A DNA stretch of 64,000 bases from Escherichia coli (GCF_016026235.1 NZ_CP065613.1), one strand, 5' to 3'. Positions 1-34,104 are shown, counted from the stretch's first letter. Numbers and translations: made by a program. The notes: generated from the sequence alone by a model not told the origin.

Positions 1-38
1 GGCGGGACATTTTCTGTAACAACCACGACCATGCTCAT
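1..38 (-). CDS. cas2: Cas2 (type I-E), 5' fragment only; ATG at 38..36 overlaps the cas1 stop (TGATG); continues beyond the left window edge
   Basis: Minus-strand reading from 38 gives M-S-M-V-V-V-V-T-E-N-V-P, matching the Cas2 N-terminus as I recall it; position immediately downstream of cas1. Confidence 0.5.
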   Translation of the reverse strand, partial: MSMVVVVTENVP

Positions 39-2333: not shown

Positions 2334-2343
2334 AAGCCGCCCC

Positions 2344-3399: not shown

Positions 3400-3413
3400 G
3401 AGATAGTCCTTTA

Positions 3414-5509: not shown

Positions 5510-5606
5510 ACGCATCCTCTCGTAAAAAAGACCATCCCAGGTCGGTTGTCCATCTTTCCATCCTTTTCGGTGTATCAACTATTCAGAGAGTCCTGTCGCA
5601 GACATC

Positions 5607-8295
5607 TCAACCAACCTTGCCAATCAATCCTTCCGTAGCCGAATACCCGCAACTTTCGTCATCGTTGACTAAAATCACGTTTGCCATCTCCGGATCTTGT
5701 CGCTGTTCAATGCACCACAGCCTGAACGCCTCTCCCTCCAGTAAAGAAAACTCATCCCGATGTTTTTTCCACCAGCTTCGGCGCACTCTGACAACGCTCA
5801 TTTCCCATGCGTGAGCACCGGTGGCATAAGGCTTCACCACACCGTCAATACAGGTAGCCAGCCACAGGGAAACAGACTCCTCAGCCAGACGTGTCGACAG
5901 TTTTTCTGGGAGGTAATCGTTGATATTGGCGGCATAGCCGGGCCTGAAGTTCAGCACAAACTTTTTAGCCATTGCGCGATCACAGTAATATTTGCCCACT
6001 TGCTCCTGCTCGCTGCGGGAAAATCCTTCCGGCATTACCACGTCCTCACCGTAGACGGATTCAATAAGAAGCCGGGCTGCGTGTGGCATCTGAATAGCGC
6101 CTTGCCCACGCAGCACACGCTGCGTCAGCCAGATTCGCCCATGATCGGGGTAGACAAATGCACTGTTACGCATCGCACTGCCAAACCATTCATCACCCGG
6201 AGAGTCGTCCCAGACGGGTGCCAGAATCAGCAATTCAGGAGGGGAACGCTCGTCTTTTCCGTCACGCTTTAACTGACCATTAATATCGCGAATATGCCGC
6301 TGTAATCGCCCCGCTCGCTGGATTAGCAAATCAATGGGGGCCAGGTCGGAGATCATTTCGTCCATATCGCAATCAACGCTCTGCTCCAATACCTGAGTGC
6401 TAATAAGGACTTTTCCGGCACGCTGTGAGCTACCTTCTTTACCAAAGCGTGCCAGCGTTTCCGTTTCAATTCGCTGGCGATCGCTAAAAGCAAAGCGGCT
6501 ATGAAAAAGTGAAAGGCTGGAAGCAGGAATGACGCCGCGGGCAAGCAGCTGACGATAAACCTTAATAGCGTCATCGACAGAATTCCGGATCCAGGCGATG
6601 CATTTCCCCTGACTCACCGCCGATTCGATACGCGCAATACACTCTTGTTCGCTATGAAGCCAACCCACGCTCACGCTACGCTCAACGTCTTTGCGCGTCG
6701 CTACCCGGTGTGAATTCACATTGGATTTCGTAACGTGCGTCAGCCAGGGGTAATCATCCTTTTCAAGGAACGGAGCTTCTTGCTGGCCCTCTGTACCCCG
6801 CGCAAAGGCGGCGACGAGTTTGTCGCGCTGCTGTTGGGATAACGTAGCAGAAAGCAAAATGACGCTGTTTCCACCACGCGCCTGCCGCTCGATCAGCCCT
6901 TCAAGAATGCATGACATGTAAGCGTCACAGGCGTGGATCTCATCAGCCAGCAGGATTTTGTTACTCAGCCCCAGAAGCCGCAGATTATTATGTTTGAACG
7001 GCATCACCGCCATCATCGCCTGATCCAGCGTGCCGACGCCAATTTCAGCCAGTAAAGCCTTCTTGTTACTGTCGGCAAACCAGGCTGCACATCCTTGACT
7101 GAACGCTTGTTCATCCGGTTCTTCTGACCCGACTAAATCACCGGACCAGAGTGATTCATTAAAGCGGTCCATTAATGTACGGGCGCTGTGTGCCAGCACC
7201 AGGCTGGGGCGGGATTCTGGCGAATAGAAAGAAAGCCAGGTTTTGACCAGCCGATCGTACATGGCATCGGCCGTTGCCATTGTTGGCAGGCCAAAGCGCT
7301 TTACCCGCAGCCATCAACCTGTGCGCCAGGATAAGCGCCGCTTCTGTTTTACCTGCGCCAGTCACATCTTCCAGAATAAATAACTGTGGCCCTGGCTGGC
7401 TGATATCCAGATCCAGTACCTTTTGCTGTAATGGTGTCGAGTGCTCAATAAAAGGAAACAGCGTATTAATTCCGGTGAAAGGTGCGGTTTCTGCTTTTGG
7501 AGGAAAGACGGTTAAGGCGTTTTGTGCCTGAACTAAAGTTTTCTGCCAGTAATCTTTAATATTCATTGTCTGTGCGACGCGTGGAAAAAATCGCGTTGAC
7601 GAACCCGTCCAGTCTGCGAGTACGACTGTTGCAGAGATATACCAGGAAAGTTGTTTTAAAAGTTCAACGCCCTCGTCATCATCCCAGAATGTGGGAATCT
7701 CTATGAGCGGAAACAGTGCCTTGATTGCAAGGAGAAAATCTCGCGCGGCAGCTTTGTCTTCAGGCAGAAAATTATCCAGCTCATCAATACGGTCAGGTGG
7801 TCGACCATGATGCCCGGTAGTTATGGACATCCACATCTCTATTACACGTGTAAGTTTACGAGAAGAGAGTGAAGATGAAGGAAGCAACTCCTCACATTCA
7901 CTTAAATAATAATTCCACAGCCAGTAACCCAGCGTTGAATGAGAGATCTTTTCGTAATTCTTTCTGGAACCTTCCGGAATCTTGAGTTCAGGGGCCAGGT
8001 AAAGTTGCTGAAAAGAGCGGGCAAATTTTCCAATATCGTGCCAGCACAGCAACCAGGCGAAAAATTGAGCCGCCTGTTCCTTGTCAGAAATCCCTAATTG
8101 ACGAAAATAATCAGCCAGCCCGAAGCAATTTCTTTTAACCATTAAATAGCCCATCGCGGCTACATCCAGCGAATGCCAGCAAAGAAGGTGATAGTCGTCG
8201 CCCCCGTCTTTCTCGCCGCGTCGGGTTTTTCCCCAGAAATCAAAAAAAGTCACAATATTTTTATCCTTCAGTAAACTTAAAGGATATTTACGCAT
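5607..8295 (-). pseudogene. cas3: Cas3 HD-nuclease/helicase split by a frameshift into two overlapping ORFs (7159..8295 and 5607..7280)
   Basis: N-terminal ORF has HD motif (WHDIGKF) and Walker A (VTGAGKTEAAL); C-terminal ORF has DExH (LLADEIHACD); frames switch between about 7280 and 7316 (LMAAGKA... in one frame, ...FGLPTMATADAM in the other). Confidence 0.85.
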
Positions 8296-8476
8296 ATATT
8301 AAAAATTATCTGTGATATATATCAGCCAATAAAACATTTATATTGTGAATAAATTTATGATTTTCATTTGAAATTCATAATAATAAATAGAGACAATATA
8401 TTCACATAAAAAATATAAATTTAAAAAAGGGTGCAGGAGACCAAACCATCACAATTCAATACGCGGGGTTTTACCC
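8296..8476 (-). promoter_or_regulatory. Very AT-rich region upstream of cas3; probable promoter / nucleoid-protein-bound region
   Basis: About 180 bp of strongly AT-biased sequence directly upstream of the cas3 start; promoter function inferred from position only. Confidence 0.3.
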
Positions 8477-9770
8477 CTGAGGGATCCCCAGAAAATTTAG
8501 TAAACCATTATCATATTGGTATACCGTTGCTGTAGAACTTTCAGCCCTGCGTCAAGTGACAGTGTGTTTAGTATGAGTGGAGAATGTCGAATCACATTCT
8601 CCGCCAGTTTTAATAACGAGATGACTCGCCTGTGCTTCACTGTATTTGCCTGATATTTATGATGTATCCCTTTGTTTTCCAGGCTGAAACCGCTTAACCA
8701 CATAATGATACTGGCTAATGTTGCGATCAGACTCAATACCGTGACCCGCCCGGATGAATGACTGGCACCAAACCGTAGTCCAAATCCCCAGCGAGGATTT
8801 TTTTCATCCCTGAAATTTTGCTCAATTTGCATTCTACGGCTGTATAATTTCATTACCTGTTTTGGCGAGAACTCAGTACTGTTTGTGAAAATAAACCATG
8901 GTGATTTCCCGGCAGTACGAGCTTTAGCCGTCACCGATGGTCTGGTTGCTCTTTCCTTCGAGCGTTTAAATCTACGACCTTTAGGCTTACTTTTATAAAG
9001 ATAAAAATGCCCTTCATGTTGTGCATTTTTATCTCGACCCAGCAGGCCTTCACCTAAATAAATTGCTGTCGTTGATGCTTTTGTGCCTGAGTCCGACACC
9101 TTTTCCCAGCCATTACCAACATTGTAATAATGATTGCCCAGTACCCGGCAAATATAGGTCCAGCCACGGGAGCGGAGCTGTTGGAACCATCGCCCCTGAA
9201 AACCGGCATCTGTAATAACAATGACATCAGTCCCGGGGGAAAAGCACTCAGCAAGCGATTCCAGAAAACGCTCATGTACATCTGCATTCGCTGTCTGTGA
9301 TGATGGAACGACACAACTCATCAACGGTAAAGAACGCCCGTCACATGCCAGGCTTGCCCGCAAAAGCTGAAAACGAGAGGCATGATAAGCACTCCAGTCA
9401 ATGAGTATCACAACACGAGACATTCCCCGCGTAATCTTTTGGGTAATTCGCTGAAAAATGGTGGAAACCTCATTTTGCAAATGTCGATTCCCCAACAGTC
9501 GATCCACCCGCTTTATTTTGTTTTTAACTGATGCCGTACCGGTTAAATGACGCCCGATACTGGTAAGTGTGAGGGAAGCGCCATTTATTACAGCATTAGT
9601 TGCGTCAATCAGTGATTTTTGACGGTAAAGATGCAAAGGGGCCAGTATGTTGTTAAGGAAATTTTGGCATAATGAACGTGCAGGCATAGTGGTGATCTCC
9701 TTGAAATTGTTAGCACAATCAATTAGATCACATCTCACTATGCCTGTCTTGTTTTCTGGGGATTCCTCAG
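8477..9770 (-). mobile_element. IS4-family, IS10-like insertion sequence (about 1.29 kb); boundaries approximate
   Basis: Imperfect terminal inverted repeats CTGAGGGATCCCC (8477..) and GGGGATTCCTCAG (..9770) resemble IS10 ends; encloses an IS10-like transposase; the 9-bp flanks do not match (no target-site duplication). Confidence 0.75.
8497..9687 (-). CDS. IS10-like DDE transposase, 396 aa (start at MPARSL, inside the IS)
   Basis: Segments ...KIKRVDRLLGNRHL... and ...YSRRMQIEQNFRDEKNP...KYQANTV... closely parallel the IS10 transposase (KRIDRLLGNRHL, YSKRMQIEETFRDLKSP, HFQANTV). Confidence 0.85.
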   Translation of the reverse strand: MPARSLCQNFLNNILAPLHLYRQKSLIDATNAVINGASLTLTSIGRHLTGTASVKNKIKRVDRLLGNRHLQNEVSTIFQRITQKITRGMSRVVILIDWSAYHASRFQLLRASLACDGRSLPLMSCVVPSSQTANADVHERFLESLAECFSPGTDVIVITDAGFQGRWFQQLRSRGWTYICRVLGNHYYNVGNGWEKVSDSGTKASTTAIYLGEGLLGRDKNAQHEGHFYLYKSKPKGRRFKRSKERATRPSVTAKARTAGKSPWFIFTNSTEFSPKQVMKLYSRRMQIEQNFRDEKNPRWGFGLRFGASHSSGRVTVLSLIATLASIIMWLSGFSLENKGIHHKYQANTVKHRRVISLLKLAENVIRHSPLILNTLSLDAGLKVLQQRYTNMIMVY

Positions 9771-9990
9771 GGGCGATCCTCCAGTTCAAATATAAGGTCA
9801 GAACCTGCATGGTTTATATCAGACATCCCTTCACTCCTTTTAAAGTAAATTTGATCATCTGAATTAGTAAAATAAATTCCCACGAATTTGGGGCGCAGGA
9901 CGCCTTGAGAACGGCTTATCTCATTTTCGCAGTCACTATTTAGTCATCGTTCAAACAGAGAAACAGGCCGCCGAAGCGGCCATTTATTAT

Positions 9991-12861: not shown

Positions 12862-13637
12862 ACGGCTTCCTCCCCAGCCTGTTGGCAGTCGGCATACAGG
12901 TCGGCTACCAGAACTCCCGTGATATAGCGTTTATAGGCCACGCTGCCCCGCAAATCTTCCTGCGGGAAAATGGCGTTGGCGACAGCCTGTTCAAGTGCAT
13001 TGCCTTCCAGATTTTGTTTTTCGACATCGTGCAGACGCAGTGCTTTACTGGCGACGCCATCCAGCGCAATTCGCATACCGTCGTGGTCTGTCATTGCAAC
13101 GGCTGCCGTCACGACGGTTAAACCTGCCTGAGAACGGCTAATTTTGCGGGTCGCACAGGTGCGATACGGATCTTTAATGATAATTTCGGTTAGCAGGCGA
13201 TCGCATGGGCAGGTCAGGTAGTCCTCGATTGACAGCGTTTCGCCGTTGCCAAAAACCAGTTCAGCATCCAGTGCTAGCAGGACGGGAAGCAGCACCGACT
13301 CTTCCTGCCGGGCAGCGATTTCACCACCAATGGTCGACTGATTACGAACATGGCGTGAGTAAACAAAACCGAGGGCTTCACGCAGTGCTGCAGGAATAAA
13401 TCGCGCATCACGCAGTGGCTGCAAGCGAGACATTGCGCCAATCCGCAGTGCACCGTTATCCCAGTCAACCCAGTCCAGTTCCAGATCCTGTAAGGAGATG
13501 GCAATCTTTTTATCGGTACGGGTTGGTGTAGCATTGAGTTTGCTGCCCCCGGCGAACCAGACGGCTTCATCCTGGTAGCGGCGCTTCAGTTCCAGCGCCT
13601 GTTCGACAGAGTCGGGCCTGAAAAATTGTTCAATCAT
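12858..13637 (-). CDS. ygfM: FAD-binding subunit of a molybdenum hydroxylase, 259 aa
   Basis: Size and position between ssnA and xdhD as in K-12. Confidence 0.85.
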   Translation of the reverse strand: MIEQFFRPDSVEQALELKRRYQDEAVWFAGGSKLNATPTRTDKKIAISLQDLELDWVDWDNGALRIGAMSRLQPLRDARFIPAALREALGFVYSRHVRNQSTIGGEIAARQEESVLLPVLLALDAELVFGNGETLSIEDYLTCPCDRLLTEIIIKDPYRTCATRKISRSQAGLTVVTAAVAMTDHDGMRIALDGVASKALRLHDVEKQNLEGNALEQAVANAIFPQEDLRGSVAYKRYITGVLVADLYADCQQAGEEAV

Positions 13638-18117: not shown

Positions 18118-18198
18118 AACCCTCTCCTTAGCTTATACAGATATCATTGAGTGACCGGTGTTGAGAAATCCGGTGGTTTAGGGGGATAGAGCAACAAT

Positions 18199-18216
18199 CG
18201 CACCACTCTTGCCAGG
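18199..18216 (-). promoter_or_regulatory. Candidate sigma54 (-24/-12) promoter upstream of ygfK
   Basis: Minus-strand TGGCAAGAGTGGTGC has GG and GC with canonical -24/-12 spacing, about 85-100 bp upstream of the ygfK start; a sigma54 activator (ygeV) is in the cluster. Confidence 0.3.
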
Positions 18217-18438
18217 TTTGGCGGGAAATATAAAAAAATGTGAGGCGGCTCGAAACTTAAGGGCTTTTTGTGAATGAACTCACAGGTGCTAAATGAGAAT
18301 TAAAATCACTCCTGAAAATTATTATTGCCAGCCCATTTATCAATTTTTCTCTTTTCTCAAAATCAGTGATTCCTTATCATTATGATAATGAGTGCCGGAA
18401 GGATTAAATATTTGAACGCAATCGTTTAACTACGTTTT

Positions 18439-19119: not shown

Positions 19120-19890
19120 GTGAAAAGTATAGTTGACCCATCGGCATTAGTCATTGATTTAGGTGCGCAGAAACGTCCCACTGTGATTTCTGTTGTTGGT
19201 GCTGGGGGGAAAACCAGCTTGCTTTTTTGGCTGGCAGAACTGCTCCAGGCTAGCGGCAGGCGTGTGTTAATCACGACGACGACACATATGTTTATGCCAA
19301 CGTCTCACTGGCCCGTGGTTTTCTGTCGTGATCCCGCCATGCTTCCTCATGCGTCTCTTACATCCCCCATTTCATTTTGTTTTCACAGCTGGAAAGCGAA
19401 CCAGGGAAAAGTGCAGGGATTTACGCCAGAAGCGATTGATGCACTGGTGCAACGACCAGAGTGTGACGTAATTCTCATTGAAGCAGATGGCTCGCGTGGA
19501 ATGCCGTTAAAAGCGCCTGATGAGCACGAACCTTGCATACCCAAAAGCAGTTGCTGCGTGATTGCTGTGATGGGAGGACATACTTTGGGCGCGAAAGTGA
19601 GCACAGAAAATGTCCATCGCTGGTCGCAGTTTGCTGATATTACCGGGTTAACACCTGATGCAACCTTGCAACTGAGCGATCTCGTTGCGCTGGTTCGCCA
19701 CCCTCAGGGGGCGTTTAAAAACGTACCGCAAGGTTGTCGGCGAGTCTGGTTCATTAACCGTTTTTCTCAATGTGAGAATGCGATTGCACAAAGCGAGCTC
19801 CTTCAACCGCTGCAACAACACGACGTAGAGGCAATCTGGCTGGGCGATATACAAGAACATCCTGCAATCGCGCGCAGATTTGTGAATTAG
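19120..19890 (+). CDS. yqeC: Selenium-dependent molybdenum hydroxylase system protein YqeC family, 256 aa
   Basis: Size and synteny; P-loop-like motif VVGAGGKTS. Confidence 0.8.
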   Translation: MKSIVDPSALVIDLGAQKRPTVISVVGAGGKTSLLFWLAELLQASGRRVLITTTTHMFMPTSHWPVVFCRDPAMLPHASLTSPISFCFHSWKANQGKVQGFTPEAIDALVQRPECDVILIEADGSRGMPLKAPDEHEPCIPKSSCCVIAVMGGHTLGAKVSTENVHRWSQFADITGLTPDATLQLSDLVALVRHPQGAFKNVPQGCRRVWFINRFSQCENAIAQSELLQPLQQHDVEAIWLGDIQEHPAIARRFVN

Positions 19891-21563: not shown

Positions 21564-21603
21564 ATGAAAATGGCCGGATGGTATTACCCACCCGGCCTTA
21601 AAA

Positions 21604-22536
21604 TTACTGACAAATCACCGTTCCGGTTTTGCCTTCAATCCCTTCTTTCGCTTTGCTCAATACGGTAATCAGTGCTTCACGACCTGCGCGAGAGCGAGCA
21701 AACGAGGCGGCAGCTTCCACTTTAGGCAGCATAGAACCTTTCGCAAAATGACCTTCTTCGATAAAGCGTTCAGCATCACTTAATGACAGGCGATCGAGCC
21801 ACTGTTCATTCTCTTTACCGAAGTTAATGGCCACTTTTTCTACCGCAGTCAGAATGATCAGCATATCGGCATCAATCATTTCTGCTAAACGGGCGCTGGC
21901 CCAGTCTTTATCGATAACCGCGCTGGCACCACGCAGATGGTTACCTTCACGAATAACAGGGATACCACCACCGCCAACGGTGATCACCACCTGGCCTGCA
22001 TCTACCAGAGCTTTAACCGTTTCTTTTTCAATGATATCAACCGGTTTTGGCGAGGCAACAACACGGCGATAGCCGCGACCAGCATCTTCTTTCAGAGTGT
22101 AACCCTGTTTTGTCAGTTGCTCTGCTTCTTGCTCGGTAAAGAACGAACCGATCGGCTTGGTCGGGTTGAGGAATGCCGGATCGTTAGCGTCGACTTCGAC
22201 CTGAGTAACCAGCGTTGCTACAGGTTTATTAATGCCCCGAGAAAGCAGTTCTTCTCTTAAAGCGTTTTGTAGATCGTAACCAATATAACCCTGGCTTAAT
22301 GCAACACAGACAGACATCGGCAGCATTGGCGAGTGCGCTTCAGTTTTTGCGGCAGCTTCAAAGGCCTGGTTAATCATGCCCACCTGCGGCCCGTTACCAT
22401 GAGTGACGATAACTTCATGTCCCTGGGCAATTAAATCAACAATTGCCTGAGAAGTAATTTTTACCGCTTTCATTTGCCCGGCCAGGTCATCGCCCAGCGC
22501 ATTCCCGCCCAGGGCGAGAACAATTTTCTTACTCAT
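21604..22536 (-). CDS. yqeA: Carbamate kinase-like protein, 310 aa
   Basis: N-terminus MSKKIVLALGGNAL typical of carbamate kinases; synteny. Confidence 0.9.
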   Translation of the reverse strand: MSKKIVLALGGNALGDDLAGQMKAVKITSQAIVDLIAQGHEVIVTHGNGPQVGMINQAFEAAAKTEAHSPMLPMSVCVALSQGYIGYDLQNALREELLSRGINKPVATLVTQVEVDANDPAFLNPTKPIGSFFTEQEAEQLTKQGYTLKEDAGRGYRRVVASPKPVDIIEKETVKALVDAGQVVITVGGGGIPVIREGNHLRGASAVIDKDWASARLAEMIDADMLIILTAVEKVAINFGKENEQWLDRLSLSDAERFIEEGHFAKGSMLPKVEAAASFARSRAGREALITVLSKAKEGIEGKTGTVICQ

Positions 22537-22583
22537 TTTTCCTCACTCATCATTCTTGATTGTGTATAGATCCCTAGCAGTGG

Positions 22584-23969
22584 TTAGAGCACGGGAGGGA
22601 CAAACGGTTTGCGTCGCAGGAAACGACCTCGCCCGGCTTTGCCTGTAAAGGTGCCGTCACAGAAAATCGTTTCACCACGGGATAAGGTTCTGACAATCGC
22701 GCCCTGACAGGTAAAACCCTCCCATGGCGAGTAGTCGGCGTTGTCGTGGAGATGGCGATGCTGAATTTGTTGGCTCTGACGTGGGTCGATAATCACCACG
22801 TCGCCATCGGAACCGGGCGCTAATAATCCTTTTTGCGGCCACAGGCCAAACAGCCTGGCGGGCATTGCGCTGGTTAATTCAACAAAGCGTTCCGGTGTTA
22901 TACGTCCCGTCATCACGCCACTGGAAAACAGTAACTGCATGCGGTTTTCCACACCGGGTAAGCCATTTGGGCAGCGACTGAAATCGCCTTTAGAAATTTG
23001 CAGGCGTTGAGCCATTGAGAACGTGCAGTGATCGGTCGCCACCACGTCAATCGCACCATCGCTGATGCCACACCACAGTTTGTCCTGCTCGCGTACGTTA
23101 CGCAGCGGTGGGCTAAGAATGAACTTCATGCCATCTTCTGTATCGTAACTGCGTTCGTCCAACAGGAGATATTGTGGGCAGGTTTCAACCCAGACTGGCT
23201 GGTGATTCGCACGGGCAAGACGCAGATAATCCAGACCTAAGCCGTTAGACAGGTGCACGATATAGAGCGGGGCGTTACCGGCAATTTGTGCCAGGTTAAT
23301 CATGCGGGCGATGGCTTCCGCTTCGCATTCCAGAGGGCGACTCAAGGCGTGATAGCGCGGCGCGGTTAACCCTGCGGCGATAAACTCCGCCCGCTTGCTG
23401 GCGATAGCCGCATCATTTTCCGGGTGCACGGTGGTCAGCGCGCCGGATTCATGCAGACGGCGTAATGCCTGCAAAACCTCGTCATCGTTGAGTTTGTATT
23501 GATAGGTTAAATAGAGTTTAAAACTGCTCAGCCCTTCCTCGACCATCATAGGGATTTCGTCGAGGATGGCGTGATTAATGTGCTGGATCACACCATGAAA
23601 GCTGTAGTCGATGACCGCCTTATGGGCGGCATAGCCACGATAAACCTCCAGTTGATGGCGTAACCGACAGCCGTTTGGGCCAAATCCCATATGGTCAATA
23701 ATGGTTGTTGTACCGCCACACGCAGCTGCGCGGGTACCGGTAAAAAAATCATCACAACTGCGCGCGATGCCGACATCAATATTGAAATGCGTATGGACAT
23801 CCACGCCGCCAGGGAAAACGTAACAGCCAGTGGCATCAATTTCTTCATACGGGAGCTGCGGCGAAATATTGTTGCCCAACTGGCGAACAATCCCGCTTTC
23901 AATCAGCAAATCCGGTTTGGCTTGTCCATCTGCGTTAACGACAGTGCCGTTTTTGATCAATACGCGCAT
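22584..23969 (-). CDS. hyuA: D-phenylhydantoinase / dihydropyrimidinase-family amidohydrolase, 461 aa (start MRVLIKNG)
   Basis: HxH metal motif (DVHTHF); size and synteny. Confidence 0.9.
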   Translation of the reverse strand: MRVLIKNGTVVNADGQAKPDLLIESGIVRQLGNNISPQLPYEEIDATGCYVFPGGVDVHTHFNIDVGIARSCDDFFTGTRAAACGGTTTIIDHMGFGPNGCRLRHQLEVYRGYAAHKAVIDYSFHGVIQHINHAILDEIPMMVEEGLSSFKLYLTYQYKLNDDEVLQALRRLHESGALTTVHPENDAAIASKRAEFIAAGLTAPRYHALSRPLECEAEAIARMINLAQIAGNAPLYIVHLSNGLGLDYLRLARANHQPVWVETCPQYLLLDERSYDTEDGMKFILSPPLRNVREQDKLWCGISDGAIDVVATDHCTFSMAQRLQISKGDFSRCPNGLPGVENRMQLLFSSGVMTGRITPERFVELTSAMPARLFGLWPQKGLLAPGSDGDVVIIDPRQSQQIQHRHLHDNADYSPWEGFTCQGAIVRTLSRGETIFCDGTFTGKAGRGRFLRRKPFVPPVL

Positions 23970-24021
23970 AGCAAACTCCAAAAACCCTCCGGCGAACCGG
24001 AGGGGAATAAGTGAAGAGTAA

Positions 24022-25233
24022 TTATTCGGTTGCCAGCCAGCTTAACGGGATTGCAGCGTACATCGCGGCACAGGTCACCAGGTGAGATTTCCAGGTTTTT
24101 TCGTTAGGTGCATGCGCTTCAGGTTCTTTACCCGGGCCAAAGCCGATCACCGGAATGCCGTGACGGCCCATGATAGATACGCCGTTAGTTGAGAAGGTCC
24201 ACTTATCAACAACCGGCGCTTTGCCAAACAGCCCTTCGTAGGCATTCACCAGTGCTTTAACGGTGAAGTGATCTTCTTCCACTTTCCAGGTCGGGAAGTA
24301 GCATTCGGTTGGGTAAACCAGGCCAGTCCAGGACGGACGGTCGTAGTTGTACATAGAAACAACCGCGTTAGCTTTCTGTACTGCAGGCAGGGCGCGGATT
24401 TCGTCCAGCGCGCCTTCCCAGGTTTCGCCCCAGGTCAGACGGCGGTCAATAGAGACGGCGCAGCTATCTGCTACAGCGCAACGGCTTGGGGATGTGAAGA
24501 AGATTTCAGAAACGGTGAGGGTGCCTTTGCCGAGGAATTCGTCATAACCCAGACGTTGGGAGAGTTCTTGTAATTCGCCAAGAATCGGACCCATTTTGAA
24601 AATGGCGTTGTCACCGCGTTCTGGCGCAGAACCGTGGCAGCTAACACCCTGAACATCAATACGAATTTCCATACGACCGCGCTGACCACGGTATACCTGG
24701 CAGTCGGTTGGTTCGGTACTGACCACAAATTCCGGGCGAATGCCGGATTGTTCAATAATGTACTGCCAGCACAGACCGTCGCAGTCTTCTTCCTGCACAG
24801 TACCGGTAACCAGCAGGGTATATTCATCTTCCAGACCGAGGTCTTTAATGATTTTACCGGCATAAACCATAGATGCCATGCCGCCTTCCTGGTCGGAAGT
24901 ACCGCGACCACCGATCAGCTCATCAGTTTCCATGCCTTCGTACGGATCGAAGTCCCAGTTTTTGATGTTGCCAATGCCGACGGTATCGATATGAGCGTCC
25001 ATTGCCACCAGACGCGGGCCGTGGCCGATATAACCGAGAACGTTACCCATCGGGTCGATTTCAACTTTATCGAAGCCGACTTTTTCCATCTCTTCTTTAA
25101 TACGATGTACTACGCGTTTCTCGTCGCAGCTTTCACTGGGAATAGCAACCATGTCGCGCAGGAAGCGAGTCATATCCGCCTGGTAATCTTTTGCTTTTTC
25201 AAGAATCAGTTTGAATGGAATATTCTTAGCCAT
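24022..25233 (-). CDS. ygeY: M20-family peptidase/deacylase, 403 aa (start MAKNIPF)
   Basis: Size and synteny. Confidence 0.85.
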
Positions 25234-25289
25234 TATTTTTCTCCAGATTTTTACTCCCCGTTTTGCAGGGAGCAGTTCCAATAGGGTGA

Positions 25290-26486
25290 TTAAGGTGCTA
25301 CAGCGTGTTTGCCTTCCCAGACAACTTCGCGGTAGTGCTTCACGTCGGTGTCGCCTTCAGTGCTGATAACCAGCACTACGGCATCTTTGTTCAGCGCCAG
25401 TTTTTGCATCAGGCTTTGACGTTGCGGGTGATAATGAACCGCCGCGAGAACGCCCAAACCGACAGCGCCGGATTCACCGGAGATGATGCGCGGGTCGTTG
25501 CCGTACGGATTACCCAGCACGCGCATACCTAATGCGGCAACGCTGTCCTGGCAGGAGATGAATTGGGTGGCGCAGTTACGTAGGATTTCCCAGCCCAGCG
25601 GGTTAGGTTCGCCACAGGCCAGGCCCGCCATGATGGTGGCCATATCACCGCCAACGTTGACGATGTCGCCTTTGACGCCGGAGCGATAAATACAGTCAGC
25701 TTTGTCAGGTTCAACAATAATGCTGTGCAGATTTTGCGGGCTGTAGACGTCGACCAGATAACCCAGCACACCACCGGCCATTGCACCGACACCGGCTTGC
25801 AGCAGAACGTGTGTCGGGGTTACGCCCATTTCACGCATTTGCTCGACGGCTTCATCTGCCAGGGTTGCGTAGCCTTGCATGATCCAGGTTGGGATTTTGG
25901 TGTAACCTTCCCATGCTGTGTCCTGTACCACTTCCCAGCCGTGCTGCTGCGCGTGTTGCATGGTCAGGCGAACGGTATCGTCATAGTTCATATCCGTGAC
26001 GATGCACTCGGCACCGAGGTTCAGAATGGCGTCAACGCGTTCCTGAGCAGAACCTTTCGGCATGTAAATCACCGCATTCTGTCCGAGTTGCTGTGCTGCC
26101 CATGCCACACCGCGCCCGTGGTTGCCGTCGGTGGTGGTCGCGAAGGTCATTTTTTCGCCGATGGCATTTTTCAGGTGCTCAAATGACAGCGTTTCGATAT
26201 CAAGATGATATTTTTCACACAATAATTGAGCGATGGCGTACGCACCGCCGAGCATTTTGAAGGCGTTCAGACCGAATCGTTTTGATTCGTCTTTGACAAG
26301 AATTTTCTTCACACCAAAAAGGTTTGCGAGATCGTCCAGCGCACAAAGCGGTGTTGGGCGATAACCAGCTATTTTCTGGTGGAACTGGCGCGCCAGTTTG
26401 GCCTGGCTTTGCGAAAAGAGCGGTGATGTTTCGCCGTTGAAAAATTTGTTATCGGCGATATCAATCTTCAATGAGAAAACGGACAT
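25290..26486 (-). CDS. dpaL: Diaminopropionate ammonia-lyase (PLP-dependent), 398 aa
   Basis: Size and synteny (K-12 ygeX). Confidence 0.85.
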
Positions 26487-26543
26487 ATCCTATCCTTTTG
26501 GCCTCTGGAAATAGAGGGCCGACCAGCTGATCGGCCCGAGGGG

Positions 26544-27734
26544 TTATTTCACGCGTTCTTGCGCTTCTTTCAGCAGTTGCTCGAGCAGTGCACCTGGTTT
26601 GGCGTATTTACGGGACAGGATCATCGCGGCGATGATATAAGGCTTCCAGCTGGCTTCTTTGTAGGTAGCGATACGGTATTTTTCGAATACGCCTTCAGTC
26701 ACTTCACCTTCTTTGCAGGATACGCCGCTGATATCAGCTGGCAGGCAGTGCATGTACAGGGCTTCGCCATCACGGGTCAGTTCCATCATCTCTTCAGTAC
26801 AATGCCAGTCTTTGTGTTGCGCGTTCTGTGCCAGACACTGTTTTTCCAGTGCTTTTAAGCCTTCGTGATCGTTCGCACGCAGCAATTCAGTACGCTCTTC
26901 CATCACTTTGTAAGGTGCCCATGACTTCGGATAAACGATGTCTGCGTCTTTGAAGGCTTCTTCCATGCTGGTGACCTGACGGAAGCTACCACCGGAGGCT
27001 TTAGCATTGTTTTTCGCCACTTCAACCACATCCGGGATCAGGTCGTAGCCTTCCGGATGGGCCAAGGTGACATCCATACCGAAGCGAGTCATCAGACCGA
27101 TGATGCCTTGTGGTACAGAGAGCGGTTTGCCATAGCTTGGAGAGTAGGCCCAGGTCATGGCGATTTTTTTACCTTTCAGGTTTTCCAGTGAACCAAAGTG
27201 TTCACGTAACCACGCGAGGTCAGCCATTGACTGAGTCGGGTGGTCAATATCGCATTGCAGGTTCACTAAAGCCGGACGCTGTGGCAGTACACCCTGCTTG
27301 TAACCGTCATCAAGTGCAGCGCCAACTTCACGCATATAGGCGTTGCCTGCGCCCAGATACATATCGTCGCGAATACCAATAGCGTCGGCGCAGAAGGAGA
27401 TCATATTGGCGGTTTCACGCACGGTTTCGCCGTGAGCGATTTGTGATTTGCCTTCATCGAGATCTTGCTGTGCAAGGCCGAGCAGGTTAAGCGCGGAAGC
27501 ATAAGAGAAGCGGGTACGAGTGGAGTTGTCGCGGAATACGGAAATACCTAATCCACTATTAAAGACTTTGGTTGAGATGTTTTCAGCACGCAGTGCTTTT
27601 AATGCTGCGGCAACGTCCAGTACTTGTTTCAGTTCATCTGGCGTCTGTTCCCACGTTAACAAAAAATCTTTCTCGTGAAGGTGAGAGGTCAGCGAATTGA
27701 TATCCTTAATCAGCTCATTAACAGTTTTCATCAT
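26544..27734 (-). CDS. ygeW: Carbamoyltransferase-family protein, 396 aa
   Basis: Transcarbamylase-like STRTR motif; size and synteny. Confidence 0.9.
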   Translation of the reverse strand: MMKTVNELIKDINSLTSHLHEKDFLLTWEQTPDELKQVLDVAAALKALRAENISTKVFNSGLGISVFRDNSTRTRFSYASALNLLGLAQQDLDEGKSQIAHGETVRETANMISFCADAIGIRDDMYLGAGNAYMREVGAALDDGYKQGVLPQRPALVNLQCDIDHPTQSMADLAWLREHFGSLENLKGKKIAMTWAYSPSYGKPLSVPQGIIGLMTRFGMDVTLAHPEGYDLIPDVVEVAKNNAKASGGSFRQVTSMEEAFKDADIVYPKSWAPYKVMEERTELLRANDHEGLKALEKQCLAQNAQHKDWHCTEEMMELTRDGEALYMHCLPADISGVSCKEGEVTEGVFEKYRIATYKEASWKPYIIAAMILSRKYAKPGALLEQLLKEAQERVK

Positions 27735-27822
27735 AAAGTCCCGGTAGTGGAATGACAGGCAAAGTGGTTTATTTCACTGTGACTTGCCAAAGTGATTGGT
27801 GTTTTCACAGCTATACCTGGGA

Positions 27823-27841
27823 CTAACAATAAGTGTGCCAG
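27823..27841 (-). promoter_or_regulatory. Candidate sigma54 promoter upstream of ygeW (weaker match)
   Basis: Minus-strand CTGGCACACTTATTGTT: consensus -24 TGGCAC with correct spacing, but -12 element is TTGT instead of TTGC; about 90 bp upstream of ygeW start. Confidence 0.25.
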
Positions 27842-28209
27842 AATTATCCACGGGGCTGCAAAAGACTAATTTGACGGATAATGTGTGGGGTTGATCACAA
27901 ATTGATGCTAGCTTCCGGTTGTTTGTAAAATACGAAAACGTTTGGCTTTTTTTATTGCGTTATTTATTTGCTGCTAAGTATCAGAAATAAGATAAAGGGG
28001 CAGGCTATCCCTCGTCAGTTTGATAAACTCACCGCCGTAATTCTCATATTGATATAGAAATGTGATATCTCTTCCATAATTTCATTAGAAAGTGATAAAA
28101 ATCTTATGTTTTTATCAAAGCCAATTTCGCCTGAGTTAATATCATCATGATCTGTGAACCATCAACGTCTTCAATGATCGACTTTTAAGTAAGTCTGGAA
28201 GGTAAAGCT

Positions 28210-29988
28210 ATGGAGCTTGCTACTACGCAGTCAGTATTGATGCAAATTCAACCGACAATTCAGCGTTTTGCCAGAATGCTTGCCAGCGTTTTGCAGCTTG
28301 AGGTTGAGATCGTTGATGAAAACTTGTGTCGCGTCGCCGGAACGGGCGCGTATGGGAAGTTTCTTGGTCGCCAGTTGAGCGGCAACTCACGCCTGCTCCG
28401 CCACGTCCTGGAAACGAAAACTGAAAAAGTTGTGACACAGTCTCGCTTCGATCCCCTTTGCGAAGGTTGCGATAGTAAAGAAAATTGCCGCGAAAAAGCA
28501 TTTCTGGGTACGCCTGTCATTTTACAGGATCGTTGTGTTGGGGTGATAAGTTTGATTGCCGTTACCCACGAGCAACAAGAGCATATCAGTGATAATTTAC
28601 GCGAATTTTCTGATTATGTTCGCCATATATCCACCATTTTTGTTTCGAAACTTCTGGAGGATCAGGGGCCAGGAGATAACATCAGTAAAATATTCGCGAC
28701 CATGATCGATAATATGGATCAGGGCGTATTAGTTGTTGATGATGAAAGTCGGGTTCAGTTTGTTAATCAGACTGCCTTAAAAACACTTGGCGTTGTACAA
28801 AATAATATTATTGGGAAACCTATCCGTTTCAGACCATTAACATTTGAGAGTAATTTTACCCATGGACATATGCAGCATATTGTTTCGTGGGACGATAAAA
28901 GTGAATTAATCATTGGTCAATTGCATAACATTCAGGGCCGACAATTATTTTTAATGGCGTTTCACCAATCGCATACCAGTTTTTCTGTAGCAAATGCACC
29001 TGATGAACCACATATTGAACAATTGGTTGGCGAGTGCCGTGTTATGCGGCAATTAAAACGACTCATTAGCCGTATTGCACCCAGCCCATCCAGCGTTATG
29101 GTGGTTGGTGAAAGCGGCACGGGTAAAGAAGTCGTCGCCCGTGCAATCCATAAGTTGAGCGGAAGACGGAATAAACCCTTTATTGCTATCAACTGTGCCG
29201 CGATTCCGGAGCAGCTTCTGGAGAGCGAACTGTTCGGTTATGTTAAAGGCGCATTTACTGGCGCTTCTGCCAACGGTAAAACAGGGTTGATTCAGGCGGC
29301 GAATACGGGCACGCTGTTTCTCGATGAAATAGGTGATATGCCATTAATGTTGCAGGCTAAATTACTGCGCGCTATTGAGGCACGTGAAATTCTGCCGATT
29401 GGTGCCAGTAGCCCAATACAAGTCGACATTCGCATCATTTCTGCAACTAACCAGAATTTGGCCCAGTTCATTGCCGAAGGTAAATTCCGCGAAGATCTCT
29501 TCTACCGACTTAATGTTATCCCGATAACTCTGCCACCGCTGCGTGAACGTCAGGAAGATATTGAACTACTGGTGCATTACTTTTTACATCTGCATACCCG
29601 TCGTCTGGGATCGGTTTATCCTGGCATTGCTCCCGATGTCGTCGAAATATTGCGTAAGCATCGTTGGCCCGGAAACCTGCGCGAGTTAAGCAATTTGATG
29701 GAATATCTGGTTAACGTTGTTCCTTCAGGTGAAGTTATCGACAGCACGCTATTGCCGCCAAATCTGCTGAATAATGGCACAACGGAGCAAAGTGATGTAA
29801 CAGAGGTCACTGAGGCACACCTGTCACTCGATGATGCGGGCGGCACGGCGCTGGAGGAGATGGAAAAGCAAATGATCCGCGAGGCGCTTTCACGTCATAA
29901 CAGCAAGAAGCAAGTTGCTGATGAACTGGGCATCGGCATTGCTACGCTCTATCGCAAGATTAAGAAATATGAGTTGTTAAACACATAA
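28210..29988 (+). CDS. ygeV: Sigma54-dependent transcriptional activator (enhancer-binding protein), 592 aa
   Basis: AAA+ sigma54-interaction motifs (GESGTGKE, GAFTGA) and C-terminal HTH; divergent from ygeW. Confidence 0.9.
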   Translation: MELATTQSVLMQIQPTIQRFARMLASVLQLEVEIVDENLCRVAGTGAYGKFLGRQLSGNSRLLRHVLETKTEKVVTQSRFDPLCEGCDSKENCREKAFLGTPVILQDRCVGVISLIAVTHEQQEHISDNLREFSDYVRHISTIFVSKLLEDQGPGDNISKIFATMIDNMDQGVLVVDDESRVQFVNQTALKTLGVVQNNIIGKPIRFRPLTFESNFTHGHMQHIVSWDDKSELIIGQLHNIQGRQLFLMAFHQSHTSFSVANAPDEPHIEQLVGECRVMRQLKRLISRIAPSPSSVMVVGESGTGKEVVARAIHKLSGRRNKPFIAINCAAIPEQLLESELFGYVKGAFTGASANGKTGLIQAANTGTLFLDEIGDMPLMLQAKLLRAIEAREILPIGASSPIQVDIRIISATNQNLAQFIAEGKFREDLFYRLNVIPITLPPLRERQEDIELLVHYFLHLHTRRLGSVYPGIAPDVVEILRKHRWPGNLRELSNLMEYLVNVVPSGEVIDSTLLPPNLLNNGTTEQSDVTEVTEAHLSLDDAGGTALEEMEKQMIREALSRHNSKKQVADELGIGIATLYRKIKKYELLNT

Positions 29989-30027: not shown

Positions 30028-30507
30028 TTACTTCGTTTTCTCGCAATCCAGAACTGTATTTACAATCATCTGATACCCCGTGCAGCGACAAAGATTTCCC
30101 GCCAGTCCGCGACGAATTTCCGTAATGGTTAATGGCTTCTCGCGTGGTTTCGCCAGCATTGCCGTGGTAGCCATAATCAGGCCAGGCGTACAAAACCCGC
30201 ACTGCACTGCGCCGGATTTCGCATAAGCCTGCTGAACATGAGAAAGTTTTCCGCCTTTCGCTTCACCTTCAAGCGTGCGGATCTCTTTTCCTTCAGCCCA
30301 GGCGGCAAGGTATAAGCAACTGTCTATTGCTGTGCCGTCGACCAGCACCGTACAGGCACCACATTCACCCACGCAGCACCCTTGTTTGACACTTAGCAGT
30401 CCTTGTTCGCGGAGTAATTCCGAGAGCGGCGTGCCTGGTGCGGCATGAAGCTGAAAAGGCATCCCGTTAATGGTGCATTCGATGGTAATTGTTTCGCTGT
30501 GATTCAT
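30028..30507 (-). CDS. xdhC: Xanthine dehydrogenase Fe-S subunit, 159 aa
   Basis: 2Fe-2S ferredoxin-type Cys motifs; size and synteny. Confidence 0.9.
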
Positions 30508-31382
30508 TGCAATTTTCCCCCCGCCGCGGCGACGGCTTCGCTAATCACTTTTTTGGTCATCGTCTGGATGAGATGCAGACGAAACTCTTTACTGGCCCGC
30601 CATGAAGAACGCGGGGCGACATCTTGCAGGACAGATTCGCTGATAGCTTCCAGCGTTTGCAGGTTTAATGGCGCATTTTGTGCAGTCTGTTCGGCATGTT
30701 GGCAGCGAATCGGCGTTGGCGCGGCAACACCAAATGCCAGGCGTAATTCGCTGAAATTGCCGTTATCCAGTCGGCAATGTGCGGCGCAGCCAATTGTTGA
30801 AATATCCATTGCGTCGCGCATGGCATATTTAAAATGCGCGCTGCCCGCGTGTTCTTTCGGCTGTGGCGGAAAATGAAAGGCGACGAGGATTTCGTCATGC
30901 TCAAGAGACACTTTGCCCGGCCCGGTGTGAAAGCCATTAATCGGGACGAAACGAACACCGCGCGGGGAGTGGATCTCCAGTTTCGCGTCATAAATTAGCG
31001 TTGGCGTGGCAGAATCTGCGCTGGTGGCACCGTTGCAAATATTTCCACCGTAGGTAGCGACGTTACGGATCTGCGGTCCAGCAATGGACGTGGCCGCAGC
31101 ACATAACGCCGGGAGATGACGTTGAGTTATAGGATCTTCTATTAGCTGGGTAAATGTCGTTGCAGAGCCGATACGTAGCGAGCCATCTTCCGCCAGCGTA
31201 ATTCCCCGCAGCTCCGCCAGATTATGAATATCAACAATATGGCGATAACGGTCATTGTGATGGTGGAGCTGAATCAGTACGTCAGTGCCACCGGCGAGCA
31301 GTTTGGCCTGCGGGTTGTCAGCCAGCAGGTTGATGGCATCGGCAAGGGTTGCTGCGCGATGGTAAGAAGCAAAATCAAACAT
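30504..31382 (-). CDS. xdhB: Xanthine dehydrogenase FAD-binding subunit, 292 aa
   Basis: Size and synteny. Confidence 0.9.
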
Positions 31383-31392
31383 GATGTTATCC

Positions 31393-33651
31393 TCAAATCA
31401 ATCCTGCCAGATGGAACTCTTCATATAACCGTTTTGGCGTCAGCGGCAGTGTATTGATTGCAACACCGGTAGCCATCTTCACCGCGTTACGAATAGCAGC
31501 GGCAACAGGAATTATTGGTGGCTCACCCAGTGACTTATGTCCGTATGCGGATTGCGGCTCATTGATTTCGACGAACGCGCTTTCCAGTTGTGGCAGATCC
31601 GGCATGGTCGGCATTTTGTAATCCAGCAGATTGGGGTTACGGACCACGCCGCTTTTAGCATCGATGATCATCTCTTCAAATAGCGCCCAGCCAATGCCCA
31701 TTCCCATTCCGCCGTGTACCTGACCTTCTGCCAGCAGTGGATTAAGAATATGCCCTGAATCATGAACGTTGAGGATGCGGTTGATGGTGACTTTGCACAG
31801 CGCAATATCGACCGTCAGATCAACAAAGGTACAGCCAAACGCCGGTGGGTTAGTGGTGGTTTTGATGGAGCTTTCAGCAGAGAGCTGCCCGCCGCGTTCA
31901 GGGTGGTAGAAAGCGTCCATCGCCAAATCTTTTAACGACATTAACGGCTCTTCCGGTCGTTCAACCAGCACGATATGGCCTTTTATCAGGGTCAGATTCA
32001 TCGCTGACTGATGTAGCATGACTGCGGCGTGAGCGATGATTTTCTCTTTTAATAATAGTGCCGCACTGCGCAGCGCAGGCGCGGCAACATAGCTCTGGCG
32101 TGAGGCAAATGCGCCGGGATCGAACGGCGTAACGTCGGTATCTTGAGTTGAAATAACGCGAACGTCGCTGACGGGAACCCCCACGGTTTCTGCCACCATT
32201 TGCGAGAAGACGGTGTCGGCACCCTGACCGATTTCCGTCGCGCCGCTTTGCACGTTGATGGTTCCATCCTGATTCATCAGAAGGCGCGCGCCTGCTATTT
32301 CTACGCCGACAGGCCAGGTGTTAGAGGTGTAGCTAAAACAGGCGACGCCAACGCCGCGGCGCAAATTGCCTTGCTGGTTCTGGCATTCTGCACGGCGTTT
32401 TTCCCATTCAAAGATTTTCCGGCCTTTTTCAAGACACTCCGGCAACCCTGCGCTGTAAATACGTTTGCCCGTGAGCGGATTAGCATCTCCTTCGCGGGCG
32501 GCGTTGCGTAAACGAATTTCAGCAGGATCAATACCTAACGCTGTCGCGGCGTCATCAAGCATAGACTCAACGGCAAATACGACTTGTGGCGCGCCATAAC
32601 CACGCATCGCACCAGCCGAGGGGTGGTTGGTATAGCAGGTCTTTGAACTGTAAGCGTAGGCACAACGAGGATAAAGGTAAGCGACTTTATTCCCCCCCGC
32701 AGAAGCGATGGAGTGCCCGTGAGATGCATAAGCGCCGGTGTTAGACAGAACATCCAGACTATAACCTTTCAATGTTCCGTCGCGGTTCACGCCCATTTGC
32801 CCGTCAATGGTAAAAGCGTGGCGGGTACGGGTTGCGAGGAAACACTCTTCACGGCTAAGGGAAACTTTCACCGGAATGCCGCCAAGCTTGCTGGTCAGGA
32901 ATGCCGCCATTGGCTCTTCCAGTACATCCTGTTTATTACCAAAACCGCCACCGACAAATGGTTTGATGACTCGTACGCATGACCAGGGAATATCCAGCGC
33001 CTGACCAACCACGCGGCGAACAATGTGCGGGATCTGGGTGCTGGAAACGATGGTAATTCGCGAGTCATCCTCCATCCACGCCAGCGATGTTACGCTTTCC
33101 ATGTGACAATGTTGAATAACGGGGGTCTGATAGTGCCCCTGTACCTGGTAGTCGGCGGCATCGATTGTTTGTTGGACATTACCCGTCGACATCGTGCTTT
33201 GTTTCAGTAAATTGCCACCGTTATGGATTGGTGCAGCGTCTTCTGCCAGCGCCGCTTCTGGCGTGGTGATAACGGGTAATTCTTGCCACTCAATGCTGAC
33301 CAATTGCGCCGCTTTTTCTGCCGTGAGTTCATCGCGGGCCACGACGATGGCAACGGCGTCACCATGATGACGAACATGGCGAGTTAGCAGTGCGCGATCG
33401 GCGGTATCGCGCTTGTTTTCGTCAAGTGTCCAGGCATGCCCAGCTGTAGCGAATGGAATATCAGGCACATCTTCCCAGGTAAAAATCGCCAGTACGCCCG
33501 GCAAACTTCTGGCTTGTTCATCATTAATACTTACGGCATAACCATGTGCGATAGGGCTACGTACATATTTCGCATAACACATGCCCGCCATAACATAATC
33601 GTCAGTATATCGTGCCCGCCCGGTGACCTTAGCAATGGCATCGACGCGCAT
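31393..33651 (-). CDS. xdhA: Xanthine dehydrogenase molybdenum-binding subunit, 752 aa (start MRVDAIAK)
   Basis: Size and synteny; internal start gives the expected length. Confidence 0.9.
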   Translation of the reverse strand: MRVDAIAKVTGRARYTDDYVMAGMCYAKYVRSPIAHGYAVSINDEQARSLPGVLAIFTWEDVPDIPFATAGHAWTLDENKRDTADRALLTRHVRHHGDAVAIVVARDELTAEKAAQLVSIEWQELPVITTPEAALAEDAAPIHNGGNLLKQSTMSTGNVQQTIDAADYQVQGHYQTPVIQHCHMESVTSLAWMEDDSRITIVSSTQIPHIVRRVVGQALDIPWSCVRVIKPFVGGGFGNKQDVLEEPMAAFLTSKLGGIPVKVSLSREECFLATRTRHAFTIDGQMGVNRDGTLKGYSLDVLSNTGAYASHGHSIASAGGNKVAYLYPRCAYAYSSKTCYTNHPSAGAMRGYGAPQVVFAVESMLDDAATALGIDPAEIRLRNAAREGDANPLTGKRIYSAGLPECLEKGRKIFEWEKRRAECQNQQGNLRRGVGVACFSYTSNTWPVGVEIAGARLLMNQDGTINVQSGATEIGQGADTVFSQMVAETVGVPVSDVRVISTQDTDVTPFDPGAFASRQSYVAAPALRSAALLLKEKIIAHAAVMLHQSAMNLTLIKGHIVLVERPEEPLMSLKDLAMDAFYHPERGGQLSAESSIKTTTNPPAFGCTFVDLTVDIALCKVTINRILNVHDSGHILNPLLAEGQVHGGMGMGIGWALFEEMIIDAKSGVVRNPNLLDYKMPTMPDLPQLESAFVEINEPQSAYGHKSLGEPPIIPVAAAIRNAVKMATGVAINTLPLTPKRLYEEFHLAGLI

Positions 33652-34104
33652 GCATGATTCACCCGTAGCGGTTGCTTCCCGCGCTTCCATAGAAATCCCC
33701 TCGATTTGAACATTTGGTTCTTATGGCAAAGATTTAGTCTAAGCAGGCAAGATTTACGCCAGAAACGACGATAAGCGTTAGGGGAGGTAGGAAGTGTGAT
33801 GACGTTAAAAAAACACAGATATGATACGAAACAGGACTCTGAATAGGGGCAGTGATACGTATCAATATGAGTGGCGATAAAATCAATGTGATAAATTGGG
33901 ATTATTACGCATCAGGATGGGAAATAGGGTAAAAAGTCAGGAAGTTCGATACCTCTACAGCGAATATTTTGCTGATGATACTTCCCTTTGCCAAATGAAA
34001 TTAACCTCTTTCTCTATTACCACGTTTTTCCAGAAGCAAGAGATTGGGTATCAAGAGGCTGGCTGCTATGATAAGGCGTCTTGTTTTTTAAGCGAGGAAA
34101 GATT

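Follow-up and report, generated by a model that had tools for sequence, protein, structure and literature searches.

The 475-bp intergenic spacer between the divergent genes ygeV and ygeW of Escherichia coli is best read as a divergent control region of the classical sigma-54/enhancer-binding-protein type, a model with YgeV and CRP as regulators to which we assign a probability of about 0.8. The sigma-54 promoter of ygeW is itself already published; what is added here is a predicted recognition motif for YgeV and a map of the conserved elements of the spacer.

The DNA analysed is a 64-kb stretch of E. coli chromosome (hereafter the window) that runs in the opposite orientation to K-12 numbering, and the 951 bases around the spacer recur, 95-100% identical, in 5181 of the 5426 complete genomes of E. 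coli. The gene ygeW (26544..27734, minus strand; a knotted carbamoyltransferase in RefSeq) and the gene ygeV, or uacR (28210..29988, plus strand; a sigma-54 interaction domain protein in RefSeq), keep their divergent order in every locus examined, and xdhCBA (30028..33690, minus strand) lies beyond ygeV. The initial annotation placed ygeW at the head of a five-gene run, and this is borne out: ygeW, ygeX (dpaL), ygeY, hyuA and yqeA (arcC) are contiguous on the minus strand (21604..27734), with a terminator-like hairpin and T run (21572..21597, minus strand) directly after yqeA. The enzymes of this operon constitute the lower half of the reductive uric-acid pathway (PMC12507026). The 5′ end of ygeW carries tandem ATG ATG codons in E. 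coli (27729..27734, minus strand). Because only the second of these codons is an ATG in the 12 other enterobacterial loci checked, and because RefSeq also starts there, the true start is probably 27731, with a product of 395 aa.

The -24/-12 element upstream of ygeW

A minus-strand -24/-12 element, CTGGCACACTTATTGTT (27825..27841), ends (3′ end) 90 bp from the ygeW ATG, the position of roughly 90 bp upstream at which the initial annotation had seen a sigma-54-like element. The description of a perfect -24 and an imperfect -12 also holds, in that TGGCAC is exact, with the GG at 27839/27838, and TTGT stands in place of TTGC; the G of the -12 is retained and its C is replaced by T, giving GT instead of GC at 27827/27826. 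Set against the sigma-54 consensus YTGGCACG-N4-TTGCW, the two doublets keep the required 10-bp spacing. That the element is a sigma-54 site agrees with the published record, since the same 17-mer is an in vivo binding site and the spacer is bound by the RpoN holoenzyme in vitro. Site OS30 in the ChIP-seq study of Bonocora 2015 is the identical 17-mer, on the ygeW strand and 80 bp from ygeW (PMC4591121). Its signal is weak (fold above threshold 3), and the same table holds further sigma-54 sites for xdhA, ygfK and ygfT, the one for ygfT being weak (PMC4591121). Bonocora et al. point out that binding sites are not necessarily promoters, and that many sigma-54 sites are non-productive (PMC4591121). 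Genomic SELEX with the RpoN holoenzyme gave a peak of 53-55% in the ygeV/ygeW spacer (Shimada 2021; PMC8743547), and sigma-54 promoters upstream of xdhABC and ygeWXY were predicted by Reitzer and Schneider (2001), as cited in PMC10602906.

With one mismatch allowed, the loose pattern TGGCAC-N5-TTGC occurs 7 times in the window against 7.3 expected, which is not above chance, and a matrix of published sites was therefore built for the test. It comprises 38 published intergenic sites (Bonocora 2015, Table 1), with the cluster's own four excluded. The ygeW site, at 15.9 bits, is the best match to this matrix on either strand of the window (runner-up 13.8); the published sites range from 7.6 to 20.9 bits, and the training median is 16.7. 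Random Markov windows yield 0.63 matches as strong per 64 kb, a figure that falls to about 0.002 for the spacer in the ygeW orientation.

A search with the YgeV sensor region returned 41 loci, from which 36 enterobacterial genomes (62-96% identity) were used, making 37 with the E. coli window; Citrobacter, Klebsiella, Raoultella, Kluyvera, Atlantibacter, Trabulsiella, Cedecea, Pluralibacter, Buttiauxella and one Serratia are among the genomes compared. As expected of a sigma-54 promoter, the element lies in the sense orientation at a short distance from its gene and is conserved in relatives: YTGGCAY-N4-TTATTGTT is found in the ygeW orientation in 37 of 37 genomes, 69-103 bp from the ygeW ATG in 36 of them and 208 bp away in one. 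Column by column, TGGCA is conserved at 100% and TTATTGTTA at 97-100%, the four bases between them are variable, and the spacer mean is 0.61. Since TTATTGTTA is conserved at this level across the 37 genomes, the T at -12 is, judged from the alignment, a fixed feature of ygeW and not a sign of decay. Replacing T27826 by C would raise the computed matrix score from 15.9 to 19.7. Standard sigma-54 geometry predicts a transcription start at 27814 (minus strand), 12 nt past the -12 T and with a leader of about 80 nt, which fits the 80-bp distance in the Bonocora table.

A 21-nt leader block, CTGTCATTCCACTACCGGGAC (27738..27758, minus strand), is 85% conserved across the 37 genomes, with conservation reaching well past the Shine-Dalgarno sequence, and may be a translational or small-RNA target. 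A riboswitch or small RNA encoded in the spacer or leader is not indicated, given that an Rfam scan of 27600..28350 (E up to 1) gave no match and that shuffled sequences fold as well as the predicted 100-nt leader of ygeW (z = -0.11). A search for small open reading frames in the spacer gave only chance-sized frames of 20-32 aa.

YgeV, its candidate operators and the CRP-like site

That YgeV (UacR) activates the uric-acid regulon as a sigma-54 activator is already recognised. The protein was renamed UacR following Iwadate and Kato (2019), whom later papers cite for a requirement of ygeV in urate consumption. The YgeV iModulon of Lamoureux 2023 holds 13 genes, including xdhABC, ygeWXY-hyuA, ygfK-ssnA-ygfM-xdhD, ygfT and uacT, and expression of ygfT falls in a ygeV mutant (PMC10602906). 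The protein contains a Sigma54_activat domain (PF00158; residues 272-439, E 8.5e-71) whose translation includes the Walker A motif GESGTGKE and an intact GAFTGA loop, along with a PAS domain (162-205), a C-terminal HTH_8 domain (548-587) and, at the N-terminus, a weak sub-threshold GAF match (residues 44-128). As far as its sequence can tell, YgeV passes every test for a functional enhancer-binding protein of the NtrC family. For binding of YgeV to DNA, no report was found in the searchable literature.

The initial annotation had also drawn attention to TGATA/TTATCA-type repeats in the spacer as possible activator sites. The spacer holds seven TGATA/TATCA words (at 27979, 28021, 28050, 28063, 28093, 28113 and 28140) against 1.43 in dinucleotide shuffles, of which 0 of 2000 reach seven. 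In the alignment the repeats resolve into a 15-bp dyad, TTATCA-N3-TGA(T/G)AA. The core palindrome and candidate YgeV/UacR operator, ATATCAATATGAGAA on the minus strand (28041..28055), is centred at about -234, further upstream than the operators of many textbook cases, and reads TTATCAAATTGATAA in Buttiauxella and TTATCATTATGATAA in Klebsiella. All 37 genomes have it, 34 of them at 209-213 bp upstream of the -24 GG; the exceptions, at 199, 199 and 189 bp, are shorter by approximately one or two helical turns. The distance from the core to the ygeV ATG drifts across genomes from 129 to 187 bp. A second, weaker and half-degenerate site, TTATCAAACTGACGA on the minus strand (28012..28026), lies 29 bp nearer the promoter than the core; it reaches at least 7 bits in 26 of the 37 genomes, always 28-29 bp from the core, and forms a conserved block in the alignment. 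The flank of the core, AAATTATGGAAGAGATATCACATTTCT on the minus strand (28056..28082), is likewise conserved and contains a further TATCAC half-site, and the strongly conserved blocks of this region are 28067..28039, with the core at its centre, and 28082..28071.

An operator matrix trained solely on the ygfK and xdhA sites, with ygeW left out, scores the ygeW core at 19.1 bits, second in the window behind the training ygfK site, and the chance of such a match in the spacer is 6.6e-4 when its AT-rich composition is allowed for. When up to two mismatches are allowed, the window contains 13 matches to the dyad pattern where 2.1 are expected (0 of 100 shuffles reach 13), and four of the 13 lie upstream of the window's three sigma-54 sites. 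Distances from site to GG across the promoters correspond to 20.0, 17.1, 15.05, 12.0 and 10.2 turns at 10.5 bp per turn; as would suit an enhancer, whose sites typically lie roughly 80-250 bp from the promoter on its upstream side, conserved dyad sites thus stand at near-integral numbers of helical turns, and do so at four promoters. The proposal that the repeats are activator sites gains from this conserved palindrome, which keeps a fixed distance to the promoter and recurs at the other sigma-54 sites of the cluster. Because the palindrome is common to the sigma-54 upstream regions of xdhA, ygfK and ygfT/uacT, TTATCA-N3-TGA(T/G)AA is the best candidate for, and likely to be, the YgeV/UacR operator. 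A further match to the operator matrix, TTCTCAATGTGAGAA (16.2 bits, 19762..19780), falls within yqeC, towards its 3′ end and some 170 bp ahead of the start of yqeB, and no sigma-54 site is seen near it.

Between the promoter and the candidate operators is a CRP-like site, TGTGATCAACCCCACA (27884..27899), with 9 of 10 consensus bases and a centre at about -77.5 from the predicted start. In 36 of the 37 genomes a GTGA-N6-TCNCA match precedes the GG by 52-54 bp, and in the remaining genome by 42 bp; a site with at most three mismatches to TGTGA-N6-TCACA occupies a near-fixed position in 37 of 37. The conserved CRP site is part of the ygeW control region. The in vitro targets of CRP in genomic SELEX include ygeV<>ygeW, ygfK and ygfT<>ygfU (PMC3105977); glucose represses uric-acid degradation, and a native Crp site in the ygeV/ygeW spacer has been mentioned (PMC12507026). 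An IHF site between enhancer and promoter is a frequent, though not a defining, feature of sigma-54 control regions; the IHF pattern WATCAANNNNTTR, with up to one mismatch, gave no conserved match between operator and promoter, its only matches being the palindrome itself. As there is no conserved IHF site, CRP may bend the DNA so as to bring the far-upstream enhancer close to the promoter, and so act as a bending helper at ygeW. At sigma-54 promoters CRP is better known as a repressor (glnAp2), which leaves the sign of its effect at ygeW uncertain.

Nearer ygeV there is a perfect inverted repeat with 9-bp arms, TGATAAAAA-N7-TTTTTATCA (28093..28117). Its half-sites point outward, unlike those of the operator dyad, and the half nearer ygeV, TATCAA (28112..28117), is the only half conserved in most genera; the repeat may take part in ygeV autoregulation. 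The alignment contains a further conserved block, TTAATATCAT (28136..28145, plus strand; consensus TTAGTATCAT), which may be the ygeV -10 element (TAATAT, 28137..28142) or another half-site. No good -35 element is present for this putative -10. A sigma-70 scan of the spacer gave two weak matches against 1.8 in shuffles; both lack conservation, one of them overlapping the start codon of ygeW.

Sister promoters and comparable systems

The upstream regions of ygfK and xdhA were fetched from seven other genomes as an independent test. The sigma-54 site of xdhABC in the Bonocora table is CTGGCGTAAATCTTGCC (33746..33762, minus strand), and two palindrome-like sites lie upstream of xdhA within 33859..33894. 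The distal one (33880..33894) is 126-128 bp from the GG in three of four genomes (E. coli, Buttiauxella and Atlantibacter), and the proximal one (33859..33873) is 106-107 bp upstream of the GG in four of four. For ygfK-ssnA-ygfM-xdhD the table has GTGGTGCGATTGTTGCT (18190..18206, minus strand), upstream of which is a perfect palindrome, TTATCATTATGATAA (18374..18388); with 0-2 mismatches this palindrome is found in all seven genera, either 157-158 or 178-179 bp upstream of the GG. A perfect CRP consensus, TGTGAGTTCATTCACA (18269..18284), is 72-73 bp upstream of the ygfK GG, and a TCACA half-site is placed 42 bp upstream at both ygfK and xdhA.

The ygfK regions have other features of their own. 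A TTTGAGAAA half-site (18352..18370 region) is conserved 20 bp downstream of the palindrome in all genera, and a conserved GAGTGATTTTAATTCTCATT block stands between this half-site and the CRP site. A second -24-like element, CTGGCAAGAGTGGTGCG (10.8 bits; 18199..18215, minus strand), overlaps GTGGTGCGATTGTTGCT from 9 bp upstream, and the position of the published ygfK site reads CTGGTGCGATTGTTGCT in other genera.

The window lacks the sigma-54 site of ygfT, an IS element and a cas locus standing in place of that part, and the region was taken from K-12 instead. In 18 kb of K-12 sequence from outside the window, the top operator match (20.1 bits) is the identical core ATATCAATATGAGAA, in the ygfT-uacT spacer. 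In the coordinates of the fetched K-12 segment (NC_000913.3), the spacer elements lie at 13158..13176 and 13283..13299; the core is 118 bp upstream of CTGGCACTCCACGAGCA, which is itself 68 bp before the uacT ATG. The -24 hexamer of CTGGCACTCCACGAGCA is exact and its GC is correctly spaced; the element scores only 7.6 by the sigma-54 matrix and is not in the Bonocora table, which assigns the sigma-54 site of this spacer to ygfT (PMC4591121). A weak sigma-54 promoter may thus belong to uacT, the urate transporter gene, itself. The window opens on its left with a type I-E CRISPR-Cas operon (1..8477), approximately 96.6% identical to its best E. coli matches and with cas3 split into two ORFs (5607..7280 and 7159..8295); after this operon comes an IS4-family transposase (8497..9810) that abuts xdhD. 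The K-12 genes xanQ, guaD, ghxQ, ygfS, ygfT and uacT are missing at this position; with CRISPR-Cas and IS4 where the xanQ-uacT genes would stand, the genome is rearranged relative to K-12. The CRISPR-Cas/IS4/xdhD junction is not covered by any of the top-ranked complete E. coli genomes.

Like ygeW, xdhABC and ygfK combine the same palindrome family with CRP-like elements, iModulon membership and ChIP-seq sites. Unlike ygeW, both have the canonical GC at -12 and a weaker -24 (GGCGT, GGTGC), and their matrix scores are 11.9 and 11.5 against 15.9 for ygeW. Their candidate operators are also nearer, at 107-179 bp as compared with 180-210 bp at ygeW.

Among known systems, prpR/prpBCDE of E. coli and Salmonella resembles ygeV/ygeW in that an activator gene is divergent from a catabolic operon with a -24/-12 promoter, and in that an operator (a candidate in the case of ygeV) and CRP catabolite control are located in the common spacer. 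The prp operon is CRP-dependent and uses IHF, whereas no conserved IHF site was found at ygeW; effector, sensor domains and operator sequence differ between the two systems, and the -12 of ygeW is TTGT. A sigma-54 site for prpB is present in the Bonocora table (PMC4591121). The pspA and pspG promoters, which depend on the activator PspF, share the TTGT at -12 with ygeW (in TTGGCACGCAAATTGTA and TTGGCATGATTCTTGTA) and are confirmed promoters (PMC4591121). Their matrix scores of 16.7 and 17.3 are similar to that of ygeW (15.9). PspF, unlike YgeV, lacks a sensor domain and is under the control of PspA, and the operators are unrelated. The psp promoters use IHF. The DioR sigma-54 regulon of Clostridiales (Firmicutes) includes homologous dpaL, ygeW, ygfK, ssnA, ygeY, yqeB and xdhC genes; DioR belongs to another phylum, and its operator, compared by description only, is a distinct motif.

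Alternative explanations and a model of regulation

It might be argued that sigma-54 binds the ygeW element and never fires, and that the operon is instead served by a sigma-70 promoter with TATTGT (27831..27826) as its -10 and CRP in a class I position at about -72.5. TATTGT has four of the six bases of TATAAT and is invariant, and with a start near 27819 the CRP centre at 27891.5 would have the spacing of a class I activator. A CRP-activated sigma-70 promoter would fit the repression of the pathway by glucose (PMC12507026), and the weakness of the OS30 ChIP signal and the many non-productive sigma-54 sites are compatible with silent binding (PMC4591121). A sigma-70 promoter would have no need, however, of a TGGCA that is 100% conserved at the exact -24 spacing in 37 genomes; there is no usable -35 for TATTGT, the position reading CCCGTG, and the sigma-70 scan finds nothing at TATTGT. 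The adjoining activator gene, the common palindromes and co-expression with confirmed sigma-54 operons also favour sigma-54, and we regard the sigma-70 promoter as very unlikely. The thought that the sigma-54-like 17-mer has no function and matches by chance could appeal to the chance-level frequency of the loose pattern and to the 0.63 or so matrix matches of this strength expected per 64 kb. It is excluded by conservation and by the ChIP data, and has a negligible probability: the element is invariant over 37 genomes while the rest of the spacer is 61% conserved, and its binding is published both in vivo and in vitro.

A different objection accepts the promoter as described and gives the palindromes to another regulator, for instance a purine- or metal-responsive repressor, with YgeV binding elsewhere. 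The palindrome is AT-rich and loosely resembles part of a Fur box, and a few matches to the operator matrix fall inside genes (19762, 26195 and 34635). As a Fur box, however, it is a poor fit, with mismatches at 6-10 of 19 positions (9 of 19 at the ygeW core), and Fur was rejected as the owner. The palindrome is also present in all four spacers with a sigma-54 site of the YgeV iModulon, and it stands at a fixed, helically phased distance from the -24 while its spacing to ygeV drifts, a pattern expected of an enhancer rather than of a repressor operator. Ownership by another regulator is accordingly considered unlikely.

In the sigma-54/YgeV model, sigma-54 polymerase would wait as a closed complex at 27841..27825, where binding has been shown in the literature, and the ygeW-ygeX-ygeY-hyuA-yqeA transcript would start near 27814 only after remodelling by the YgeV ATPase. 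Comparative sequence suggests that YgeV binds the palindromes at 28041..28055 and 28012..28026 through its HTH_8 domain. From these sites, which precede the -24 GG by some 20 and 17 helical turns, YgeV would contact the polymerase by DNA looping, with the CRP site (27884..27899) inside the loop and the operon probably cAMP-dependent. On sensing an effector, presumably urate or a derivative, YgeV oligomers would open the promoter with ATP, and transcription would end at the hairpin after yqeA. The layout of palindrome(s), CRP-like element and sigma-54 site recurs at xdhABC and ygfK, and the ygfT/uacT spacer of K-12, a CRP SELEX target, has both the palindrome and Bonocora's weak ygfT site. In this way xdhABC, ygeW, ygfK and ygfT/uacT would form one regulon for anaerobic purine and uric-acid breakdown. 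With somewhat more reserve than for the model as a whole, we favour the view that the palindrome is the YgeV/UacR operator and that, together with a CRP site of fixed position instead of IHF, it would make up a composite enhancer module of xdhA, ygeW and ygfK, the palindrome being present also in the ygfT/uacT spacer; at ygeW the invariant -12 T would have been selected to tune the promoter.

In gut bacteria, the reductive uric-acid pathway has been linked to host urate levels, and it is already being re-engineered at the ygeV/ygeW spacer itself (PMC12507026). The practical gain from the present analysis is a testable operator sequence for YgeV/UacR, and the map of conserved parts (promoter, CRP site, two candidate operator sites and leader block) shows those who edit the region what is removed. 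If the composite-enhancer reading is true, it would provide a sequence-defined regulon for a pathway that is being engineered for gout probiotics.
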